Assembly (NCBI RefSeq): GCF_054482595.1 | Contig: NZ_CM137008.1 | Length of the DNA stretch: 64,000 nucleotides | Reading direction: 5' to 3' (one strand) | Shown here: positions 53,506 through 54,559 of the stretch, piece by piece | How the letters are laid out: each line of letters opens with the position of its first letter | Numbering within the stretch: the first letter of the stretch is position 1 | Position numbers and translations under genes: made by a program | Notes under the pieces: generated by a model | What the model was told of the DNA's origin: nothing | Seen by the model: only the letters and a program-made list of their open reading frames with translations | Database searches by the model: none

Positions 53506-53808
53506 TCAGGAACCGATCAGATTGAGAGTTACCGTTCCAGGTATGGGGACAGAATCGTTATATAAAACATAGGGGTAACTCTCATGCTTCATAGTGACAA
53601 CCTCGCCAGCAAATTCTAAGCTGACTCGTTCAATCTCGCTGATGAAGGTGCTATGAATGCACTGATAAACCGCAGGTGAAATGCCACTCAGCTTAAGAAT
53701 TACGCCGCTAGTGTTCCTGGCTATGGTGACTTGTTCACTCCCGCTCACGGTTAGCATATACGAAAAGGGTTCTTGTAACGAGGACAAAAATAAGTCAGAC
53801 CAAAACAA
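53506..53808 (-). CDS. Hypothetical 100-aa ORF abutting the betA stop (no recognisable domain)
   Basis: Only an open reading frame; no motif recognised; sits at the edge of an AT-rich island. Confidence 0.25.
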   Translation of the reverse strand: MFWSDLFLSSLQEPFSYMLTVSGSEQVTIARNTSGVILKLSGISPAVYQCIHSTFISEIERVSLEFAGEVVTMKHESYPYVLYNDSVPIPGTVTLNLIGS

Positions 53809-54559
53809 CGTGGAGCTTTAAACACAATTCGTATAATTTATTAACAGTGATTTATTTTTACTCTTCTTTAATTAATCATCATGCTTAAATATTTTTTAGC
53901 ACAAGATTATCGCTTCGCTAACATTTTAGTTTACATTGATTTCCAATTGATAATAAAAAGTTGTTAATAAGTTTATGCGAAAAATAAAAATTGTTGAAAT
54001 ACTCTCCAGCAAATGAATCAAAAATAAACAAATTAATATTTACAAAAAGCAAAAAACTATTTAAGAGAACATCTTTAATTTATTAGCAGAACCCATCAAT
54101 AATGATTTACTTACGACTAAAAAATATCTTACAACAATGTGTTATTGTAAATTAACGGGAATGATATTAAATTTTTATTTTCTACACCACAACTTCATTG
54201 AACGACAAAATGCATATAAAATCAATAAGATAAATAATAAAGACAACCTCATAAGAAATAACGTCAAATATCTCAAAACTACTAAACATCACTAAAACAT
54301 TAGACGTAACACACATCCCCCACGCCCTGTAATTCATAGCTTTTATATTTATTTTTTCACATCAATGTAGATAAAAACACGCATTAAAAATGGCTTGTAG
54401 AAAAGCAGCACAATAAATAGTTCATATTTAGTCTATTGCGTAGAACTACTATTCAAAAAATCTTATTAATGAGATAATGAGATTACATCGATAACGTTCT
54501 GATTGCAGGCATACTTATCTGGGTGTGCCTCTCTTTTTTACAACTGTACACGGTGGCGT

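Follow-up and report, generated by a model that had tools for sequence, protein, structure and literature searches.

Positions 53,506 to 54,559, between betA and the recombinase gene ipbA, contain no gene and form the left end of PAI-X, an E. coli genomic island also referred to as O-island 14 (OI-14). This end, hereafter called the leader, has a mosaic structure in which an unconstrained AT-rich spacer separates two conserved blocks. We consider it rather probable that it serves as a cis-regulatory leader of ipbA. The island itself was already known and, at island level, nothing differs from the described PAI-X. All positions refer to the window, i.e. the whole stretch of 64,000 nucleotides that was analysed.

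Island borders, gene content and base composition

The window was 100% identical to the urinary isolate XH990, in which PGAP names betA, ipbA, hyxR, hyxA, hyxB and ykgH and labels ipbA as 'also known as HbiF and FimX'. The names given below were taken from this record; for ipbA, hyxR, hyxA and hyxB the window contains ORFs of corresponding size, while betA was additionally placed by comparison with K-12 and the core intergenic DNA by alignment to K-12, where K-12-type matches stop at 53593.

51816..53504, plus strand: betA
53505..53593: core betA-ykgH intergenic DNA common to K-12
54560-55123, plus strand: ipbA (fimX/hbiF), phase-variation recombinase
55137..55413: hyxS invertible element, with exact 15-nt inverted repeats GATTCAAAATGTCAG at 55137-55151 and 55399-55413
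55454-56248: hyxR
56402-57163: hyxA
57205-59502: hyxB
59686 onwards: ykgH, beginning after the island

In K-12, betA is directly followed by ykgH and the island is absent. The alignment against K-12, which the first-pass annotation had suggested for defining the insertion borders, delimited PAI-X / OI-14 to 53594-59578 (plus strand; 5,985 bp, 43% G+C). The island had been expected to begin directly behind betA, but the 89 bp that follow its stop codon (53505-53593) are core DNA, which places the border at 53593/53594. Neither terminal repeats at the island borders nor a tRNA near the island were found; an 11-bp inverted repeat (53523-53533 / 53574-53584) was located within the core intergenic DNA. 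The betA gene itself is six codons longer than that of K-12 because its A-run at 53477-53484 comprises eight A instead of seven.

Island carriers amounted to about 1,880-1,890 of the 5,426 complete E. coli genomes (~35%). The earlier view of this DNA as being of the horizontally acquired type was thus confirmed, the region being accessory and not conserved in the K-12-like core. PAI-X is described in the literature (Bateman and Seed 2012; Phan et al. 2013) as fimX together with hyxRAB in a conserved position, and OI-14 of O157:H7 EDL933 corresponds to Z0390-Z0397. The window agrees with this in locus (betA to ykgH), in all four genes and in the inverted repeats of hyxS. IpbA (FimX/HbiF), a tyrosine invertase, inverts the adjacent hyxS switch and is also able to invert fimS. 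Its gene is intact in the PAI-X-positive strains UTI89, CFT073, EC958 and XH990; pseudogenisation of ipbA is seen in O157:H7. As in PAI-X, the hyxS element, recognised by its inverted repeats, sits between ipbA and hyxR; a third half-site was found at 55409-55423.

The G+C content was 57% in betA, 42% in 53506-53593, 45.6% in 53594-53808 and 25.6% in 53810-54500, as compared to 51% in the window. The composition therefore drops in two steps (57% to 42-45.6%, then to 25.6%), with a sharp fall at ~53810. An abrupt change immediately after the betA stop had been proposed; the drop is real, but its sharp step comes later and its first 89 bp belong to the core. The description of 53810-54500 as very AT-rich was fully borne out, since no other segment of 691 bp in the 64 kb displayed a lower G+C (lowest 0.05%). 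The A-tracts reported for this part were present but no commoner than expected for this composition (22, versus 17.2 ± 3.6 in shuffled sequence). AA/TT phasing at 10-11 bp was absent when periodicities of 9.5-11.5 bp were tested, 33% of shuffles reaching the observed power. The leaders of paralogous islands (186-277 nt, 41-44% G+C) lack the long AT-rich tract, which is therefore dispensable for this recombinase clade in general.

Conserved blocks and the hairpin upstream of ipbA

Alignment between lineages divided the leader into four segments, the last of which contains the elements closest to ipbA:

53594..53773: left-terminal island segment, ~45% G+C, 79-91% identity between lineages
53774..53931: Block A (distal conserved block), 94-97% identity between lineages
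53932..54352: spacer, AT-rich and fast-diverging, with indels and changes in A-run length, 63-80% identity versus 93-99% elsewhere
54353..54559, plus strand: Block B (proximal conserved block), 93-97% identity, presumed ipbA promoter region and 5' leader
54490..54497, plus strand: GATAACGT motif, candidate -10 element, 10 nt upstream of the hairpin, conserved in three leader variants
54507..54539, plus strand: intrinsic-terminator-like element (terminator scan), ending 20 nt before the ipbA ATG
54552..54556, plus strand: GGTGG, Shine-Dalgarno-like sequence for the ipbA ATG at 54560 (read from the sequence)

Block A was found as a single copy per genome. Its neighbours displayed only 79-91% and 66-80% identity, and it contains a near-invariant core at ~53851-53929 as well as a perfect TATAAT (53832-53837) conserved between lineages. 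An RNA structure in Block A was considered and rejected, nothing notable being found in the fold of either strand (z -0.2 to -1.3). The spacer comprised two allele classes: among 1,889 genomes, 795 displayed at least 95% identity and 1,090 displayed 60-80%, with only five in between. In the proximal block, 92-98% of columns at 54433-54550 were invariant across five lineages. Third codon positions were ~86% identical between lineages in betA versus 97-98% in ipbA. Judged by betA, the divergence of the spacer is near neutral and the two blocks are constrained. As for a decayed gene in the left segment or the rest of the leader, tblastn searches with IpbA, FimB, FimE, HyxR, HyxA and YkgH returned noise only.

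The stem of the hairpin consists of 10 pairs (54507-54516 / 54521-54530), enclosing the loop ATCT and followed by the tail CTCTTTTTT. Its stability is modest in the window (-12.9 kcal/mol), with three G-U pairs in the stem. Taken by itself in one sequence, the hairpin did not stand out statistically (z = -0.9 for a 68-nt segment), and the terminator scan found three terminator-like sites versus 1.5 expected. Across four variants, stem energies ranged from -12.9 to -19.5 kcal/mol, the paralogues displaying -13.4 and -19.5, and each variant carried a T-rich tail. Between the window and the 81%-identical paralogue L009, 10 out of 10 pairs were kept, with three pairs changed on both sides and three on one side. 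The hairpin was also kept in an 83% relative and, within PAI-X lineages, a single T-G pair was replaced by C-G. This conservation argument comprises three independent variants only. The gene upstream of the hairpin in relative L016 is divergent, and a role as terminator of a co-oriented upstream gene is thereby excluded there.

The GATAACGT motif gave the best-scoring promoter candidate, its score not being above shuffles. More generally, the terminator/promoter scan and composition-corrected scoring of Blocks A and B yielded no sigma-70 candidate above shuffled sequence. The suggestion that the region could hold the recombinase promoter fits the near-invariant 200 bp preceding ipbA, where this promoter is putative. 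An in-frame TTG upstream of ipbA, at 54503, was out of frame in ST131, in which the T-run is 2 nt longer.

Additional FimX-clade leaders were scarce. None of the 5,426 complete E. coli genomes carried an island of the L009 type, and a scan of genome contigs gave one short contig. A DNA-pattern scan of metagenomes returned 120 matches, mostly chance, only two of which encode a relative (both of known types).

Possible regulation of ipbA and competing explanations

In the reading preferred here, that of a cis-regulatory leader, ipbA would be transcribed from within Block B. Every transcript reaching ipbA, including any read-through from the co-oriented betIBA operon, would have to pass the hairpin, which is therefore a putative attenuator or insulator. 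Such an element may keep the level of recombinase, and hence switching rates, low. Alternatively, if the conserved GATAACGT is a -10 element, the hairpin would form the 5'-terminal stem of the mRNA. By comparison with fimB, which has cis-acting sites far upstream, Block A is likely to be a control region bound by protein. A wider and clearly more tentative proposal is that FimX-clade invertase genes might carry a conserved promoter-proximal terminator hairpin setting recombinase dosage, and hence the switching frequency of hyxS and fimS, via regulated read-through or release of a functional short leader RNA; in PAI-X the distal block, 630-790 bp upstream, would add a second regulatory input.

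H-NS binding in the leader is plausible from composition alone, A+T in 53810-54500 being far above background. The high-affinity nucleation motif of H-NS is said to be TCGATAAATT-like. One such site, with one mismatch, was found at 53829-53838 in Block A; window-wide, these sites were not above chance (25 versus 17.9 ± 4.2 expected). The phased A-tracts expected of H-NS-silenced DNA were not found, their count lying within expectation and displaying no periodicity. The tract of 25% G+C would be of the kind that H-NS silences, as at fimB and fimE, the promoters of which it represses (review).

In principle, a recombination mosaic instead of selection could account for how alike the lineages are in Block A. 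A broader alternative is that the whole region, apart from a short core promoter, would be a functionless decayed spacer brought in with the island, and the conservation of its blocks a by-product of recombination between lineages. The island genes are indeed far more alike than the flanking core gene (97-98% in ipbA versus 86% in betA at third positions), which indicates a recent exchange of island DNA that could create mosaic identity. The near-neutral rate of the spacer and the short leaders with which paralogous islands manage point the same way. We nevertheless regard this explanation as unlikely: Block A forms a 158-bp identity peak between more diverged flanks in every comparison, the most distant lineage included, so that a recombination origin would need two coincident breakpoints each time, and the pairing of the hairpin is kept across paralogues with differing stem sequences. 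Similarly low is the probability that the leader hides an independent small RNA gene, as the first-pass annotation had proposed. The hairpin would then end a short transcript of Block B, with ipbA reached by read-through only, or a transcript of Block A would start after the TATAAT. The terminator architecture kept with covariation, the strong conservation of both blocks at the nucleotide level and the perfect, conserved -10 hexamer of Block A are all in line with such a gene. So is OI-14 ORF Z0397, probably the one nearest betA to judge from its number; its microarray signal was weak, and ~2-fold higher in an EDL933 rpoS mutant. Against a small RNA gene stand the lack of any Rfam family match at E <= 1 in the leader and of any promoter above chance. 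The supplement of the EHEC sRNA catalogue obtained by Hfq crosslinking lists nothing at Sakai coordinates 3722xx-3723xx, and Block A has no terminator and no notable fold. In three relatives the hairpin lies 20-36 nt before the start codon, a position explained more simply by a leader element than by a separate gene. Esr41/EcOnc14 was also considered as the sRNA of the locus and rejected; Esr41 sits in OI-43/48.

Two further explanations, a small protein gene and a second invertible switch, are less probable still. Three ORFs had to be considered as protein genes:

53506-53808, minus strand: 100-codon orphan ORF (100 aa, TTG start)
54182..54316, minus strand: 44-aa 'hypothetical protein' (ECs_0356 in Sakai), called by PGAP in XH990, O157 and Sakai; no such call in B2 strains
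53881-53967, plus strand: 28-codon ORF, open with the same stop position in five out of five aligned lineages

The 100-codon ORF is not a gene; it is a chance or relic open frame across the core/island junction. It was present in the open-reading-frame list as had been described, without recognisable motif, and matched no known conserved protein. It is not confined to the island, its last 29 codons lying in core DNA also present in K-12. Many E. coli lineages do keep the frame open over 93-101 aa. Nevertheless, no Pfam match was found at E <= 1, and 42 out of 43 protein matches were the same E. coli ORF at the same locus, the 43rd being a chimeric ORF sharing ~24 residues. Substitutions were spread evenly over codon positions, with no third-position bias (3/7/8 in ST131 and 15/15/13 in FHI_NMBU_03), and in FHI_NMBU_03 a 96-nt insertion and a stop codon interrupt the frame. 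The ORF lacks a Shine-Dalgarno sequence, and PGAP annotates it in none of the records examined. Its length is no more than chance: within the bet genes, the same ORF list gives numerous spurious ORFs of 90-200 aa. The 44-aa ORF, although called in some genomes, is probably spurious, having no Pfam match and sitting in the fast-diverging spacer. As for the 28-codon ORF, the frame conserved in all five lineages is offset by the lack of a Shine-Dalgarno sequence and by a chance of ~8% per frame in DNA of 25% G+C (our own estimate, with a stop-codon frequency of ~0.088). It is thus very improbable that any of the three is a real small protein gene. The absence of a convincing ORF in 53810-54500, noted before, was upheld, the longest there not exceeding 52 aa. 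A second, fimS-like switch within the leader, acted on by IpbA, is already close to refuted. Invertases of this family mostly have an adjacent target, and the leader does contain an imperfect inverted repeat of 30 nt (53870-53899 / 54117-54146), but this repeat is only 70% complementary and one of its arms lies in the fast-diverging spacer, where it is not kept in other lineages. The hyxS half-site had no match in the leader with up to three mismatches, and 58 out of 58 matches listed in three leader searches aligned to the window as a single piece.

Comparison with known systems

The nanC-fimB regulatory region of fimB includes IHF sites, and the NanR and NagC sites are reportedly distant from fimB. 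Like the leader, this region of K-12 is long (1.4 kb), AT-rich (36% G+C), gene-free and located upstream of a recombinase gene of the same family. By analogy, it offers a plausible model for Blocks A and B together. Control of fimB is exerted by H-NS, NanR and NagC (review). A terminator-like hairpin such as that preceding ipbA is lacking upstream of the fimB start codon. DNA homology of the leader to nanC-fimB, fimB-fimE, fimS or the Salmonella leader was not detected; comparison with the fimB/fimE upstream sequences gave only short AT-rich chance matches (E of at least 0.01 on a tiny search space).

With Rho-independent leader attenuators and insulators, the hairpin shares a stem of 10-12 pairs, a loop of 3-4 nt, a U-rich tail and compensatory changes. 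As a putative attenuator, it likewise stands between any upstream transcription and the gene. No antiterminator structure, leader peptide or ligand-binding domain was identified at the PAI-X hairpin.

PAI-X is a marker of uropathogenic E. coli, and its recombinase connects phase variation of the type 1 pilus with the hyxR-controlled phenotypes of nitrosative-stress and serum resistance. If fimX dosage does depend on the hairpin and on the distal block, both could be used directly to manipulate how often ExPEC lineages such as ST131 switch. So far, the analysis has mainly confirmed a known island border and shown that an apparent orphan gene is not a gene. In the literature found on the island, which covers its genes and hyxS, no description of the ~1-kb leader was encountered and the regulation of fimX itself was not addressed; this search left out the primary PAI-X/fimX papers, including Bryan 2006, Bateman and Seed 2012 and Bateman 2013, where the leader or the fimX promoter may be described. 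Within this same scope, the finding is ordinary overall, with one modestly interesting undescribed detail.

Outside Escherichia, the closest recombinase is STM0716 (72% identity), which belongs to the T1-antigen switch of Salmonella. The repeats of both switches are identical. The cargo is a polysaccharide cluster in Salmonella and an autotransporter in PAI-X. The leader of STM0716 is 514 nt long, displays 36% G+C and is located downstream of co-oriented genes. It differs from that of ipbA in being unalignable except for the last ~40 nt, and in harboring a degenerate hairpin only (-1.7 kcal/mol).

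Island identity, borders and distribution

The leader (53594-54559) forms the non-coding left edge of an island known from earlier work. Over 53400-54700 the sequence matched that of XH990, an E. coli strain isolated from urine, with 100% identity; in XH990, PGAP annotates betA, ipbA, hyxR, hyxA, hyxB and ykgH, the ipbA product being named 'tyrosine-type DNA invertase IpbA, also known as HbiF and FimX'. The same gene order was encountered in an ST131 strain; in a K-12-like genome (strain L-formLTE), ykgH directly follows betA. Alignment against K-12, proposed in the first-pass annotation for defining the insertion borders, placed the junctions at 53593/53594 (left) and 59578/59579 (right). 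The island thus delimited measures 5,985 bp, with 43% G+C, and an ATA triplet precedes each junction; neither a nearby tRNA nor terminal repeats were found at the borders. It is the published PAI-X, for which Phan et al. (2013) gave the content as 'fimX and hyxRAB' and a conserved location, and which they found in 24 of 50 genomes; in EDL933 it is O-island 14. The leader was found, invariably as a single copy, in ~1,880-1,890 of 5,426 complete E. coli genomes (35%), and its description as acquired DNA was borne out by this distribution and by the K-12-like genome devoid of the island.

Several lineages displayed local alterations. In FHI_NMBU_03, 96 nt are inserted into the left-terminal segment of the island (L004 6914-7000; window 53754/53755), and ~90 nt are missing at the right end (window 59526-59615), including a perfect palindrome with a 13-bp stem, CCTGCAGGCAGCA-GTA-TGCTGCCTGCAGG (59541-59569). 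This palindrome, 39 nt past the hyxB stop, just within the right border and without a following T-run, is probably the hyxB terminator. In O157:H7 (L005 2724-4304; L015, strain Sakai, 16106-17222), ipbA is a frameshifted and truncated pseudogene, hyxR a pseudogene by internal stop, and hyxB is split.

Base composition and open reading frames

Genes, reading frames and repeats around the leader
49711-53504, plus strand: betI, betB and betA, read in the window
53506-53808, minus strand: orphan ORF of 100 codons, from the ORF listing
54182-54316, minus strand: 44-aa ORF (ECs_0356 in Sakai), called by PGAP in some lineages
54560-55123, between leader and hyxS: recombinase gene, 187 aa, from the ORF listing
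55137-55151 and 55399-55413, between ipbA and hyxR: exact 15-nt inverted repeats of hyxS, GATTCAAAATGTCAG

An abrupt compositional change had been placed at the betA stop. G+C does fall, in two steps, from 57% in betA to 42-46% over 53506-53808 and 25.6% over 53810-54500, while the border itself lies 89 bp past the stop. The latter tract is the 691-bp stretch richest in A+T across the 64-kb window, and ORFs longer than 52 aa are absent from the ~750 bp between the orphan ORF and the recombinase gene, in agreement with a gene-poor, AT-rich leader. The A-tracts noted earlier are present, but in numbers not above composition (22 A/T tracts of at least four bp versus 17.2 +/- 3.6 predicted), and no helix phasing was found. 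The sole structure downstream of betA was an inverted repeat with an 11-bp stem and no T-run.

A second strongly AT-rich stretch (~47050-47500, 28-30% G+C) occupies the interval between betT and ehaA, an autotransporter gene (O-island 15 in O157:H7), on the upstream side of betT. The betA stop is at 53504 instead of 53486 (window 53477-53504): one extra A in a run, eight A and not seven, makes the gene six codons longer than its K-12 and ST131 counterparts. Annotations in different strains treat both length forms as intact betA.

Real small proteins encoded in the leader are unlikely. The orphan ORF exists as first described and had no match in a Pfam search, but it is not a gene. The final 29 codons (53506-53593) are core DNA common to K-12. 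Among 5.8 billion proteins searched, all full-length matches were the same ORF at the same E. coli locus, with the exception of one chimeric ORF sharing ~24 residues. Substitutions were evenly spread over the three codon positions (3/7/8 versus ST131, 15/15/13 versus FHI_NMBU_03), the frame is broken in FHI_NMBU_03 by a stop and a 96-nt insertion, and PGAP annotated nothing at this place among the genomes listed. The 44-aa ORF, for which B2 strains have no PGAP call, falls where the leader is least conserved.

The chimeric match, a predicted protein of 131 aa on a 3.8-kb ENA contig (P0043), joins a membrane-transporter-like sequence end to ~24 residues of the orphan frame from near the core/island junction, which suggests a rearrangement there in some strain. 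A 28-codon ORF, MLKYFLAQDYRFANILVYIDFQLIIKSC (53881-53967, plus strand), begins within the invariant core of Block A and is open, with identical stop position, in five out of five aligned lineages; it lacks a Shine-Dalgarno sequence and does not exceed what chance allows at the local composition.

Mosaic conservation and the hairpin before ipbA

The window was aligned with O157:H7, two B2 strains, the divergent FHI_NMBU_03 and two Escherichia sp. contigs. Identity between lineages was 93-99% over 13.5 kb around the leader, which itself is a mosaic.

Segments of the leader, with identity between lineages
53594-53773: left-terminal segment, ~45% G+C, 79-91%
53774-53931: Block A, 94-97%, near-invariant core at ~53851-53929
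53932-54352: spacer, 63-80%, more diverged than any other part of the region; it contains indels, and its A-runs differ in length
54353-54559: Block B, 93-97%; 92-98% of columns invariant over 54433-54550 in five lineages
54507-54539, end of Block B: terminator-like hairpin AGGCATACTT-ATCT-GGGTGTGCCT, then tail CTCTTTTTT

Third codon positions of betA were ~86% identical in the same comparisons; spacer divergence is therefore near the neutral rate, and Blocks A and B appear constrained. The high identity of ipbA (98.6-99%; third positions 97-98%) indicates exchange of island DNA between lineages at a time after the core had diverged. Among 1,889 genomes, 795 displayed spacers at least 95% identical to the window, 1,090 were at 60-80% and five were intermediate. 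Over 53950-54350 the two allele classes are ~22% apart, and the adjacent ipbA differs by ~1% between them. O157:H7 has three substitutions in Block A and an unaltered Block B.

The hairpin was detected by a terminator scan (-12.9 kcal/mol), its tail ending 20 nt before the ipbA ATG. As a single sequence it is unremarkable (z = -0.9 for a 68-nt segment; three scan sites versus 1.5 expected); what makes it notable, judging from the alignments, is its conservation. The paralogous island with an 81% identical recombinase (L009-L011, L035) displays CGGGCTGCTCAT-CTC-ATGAGTGGCCCG, then TTCTTTTTT, at the aligned position (-19.5 kcal/mol; z = -2.7 for a 79-nt segment). All ten stem pairs are kept there, three being changed on both sides (A-T to C-G, C-G to G-C, A-T to C-G) and three further ones kept via one-sided changes. 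The 83% relative (L016) has GGCACAC..GTGTGCC, then TTTTCTTTT; its upstream neighbour is divergent, so that the hairpin there is not the terminator of a co-oriented upstream gene. Among PAI-X lineages, C-G replaces one T-G pair, and T-run length ranges from six to eight. A GATAACGT motif (54490-54497), 10 nt upstream of the stem, is kept in all three leader types. In contrast, the stem is no more than degenerate in the Salmonella orthologue STM0716 (72%), no hairpin precedes the fimB start codon, and the fimE hairpin, with a T-run, lies ~85 nt upstream of the start. An upstream TTG (54503) that is in frame in the window loses its frame in ST131, owing to the longer T-run there, and is therefore not conserved as a start; the ipbA start remains ATG 54560, which GGTGG precedes by 3 nt.

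The AT-rich tract is specific to PAI-X, paralogous leaders being 186-277 nt long with 41-44% G+C. Only the last ~75 nt (GATAACGT, hairpin, T-run and Shine-Dalgarno) look ancestral to the recombinase clade. No description of the hairpin or of Block A was found in the literature searched, the primary PAI-X papers lying outside that search.

Possible roles of the leader and related switches

Comparison of lineages thus revealed apparent constraint on both blocks and a conserved terminator-type structure directly before ipbA. The earlier suggestion of a recombinase promoter seems essentially right, given the constraint on Block B, from within which ipbA would be transcribed; promoter scans of the leader gave no candidate scoring above shuffled sequence. 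Any transcript reaching ipbA, including read-through from the co-oriented betIBA, would pass the hairpin, which may cap or insulate recombinase expression. Such a cap makes sense because enzyme dosage sets switching frequency. Alternatively, if GATAACGT is a -10 element, the hairpin would form the 5'-terminal stem of the mRNA.

For Block A, the searches gave neither a fold nor homology elsewhere, nor any clear promoter; our guess, modelled on fimB and its distant cis-acting sites, is a protein-binding control region. H-NS binding had also been proposed: composition predicts the AT-rich tract to be a natural H-NS substrate, and H-NS represses fimB and fimE (review).

A separate small RNA gene, also raised initially, would fit the terminator architecture and its conservation, yet the leader had no Rfam match and no entry at its coordinates in an EHEC Hfq-sRNA supplement, and we consider such a gene improbable. 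It is similarly doubtful that the leader is a purely neutral spacer whose conserved blocks reflect a recombination mosaic: coincident breakpoints around Block A would be needed repeatedly, and the hairpin covariation would be left unexplained. A second invertible switch within the leader is unlikely too.

Between fimX and hyxR lies the hyxS promoter element, which FimX inverts; FimX can also act on fimS. A third hyxS half-site (55409-55423) is a direct repeat with one mismatch, which makes the right end a perfect 19-bp palindrome (55392-55430). Alignments at one place covering 80% or more of the query were obtained for 1,781 of the 1,891 genomes carrying this region, leaving ~110 others.

The paralogous module (L009-L011 4001-8567, and L035), in assemblies labelled E. 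coli, had no megablast match in the 5,426 complete E. coli genomes. It occupies a different locus, adjoining acetolactate decarboxylase and acetolactate synthase-like genes, with a 277-nt leader, the recombinase sharing 81% identity with IpbA, two regulators (242 and 248 aa) and a 900-aa autotransporter. Its switch displays the same TTCAAAATGTCAG repeats.
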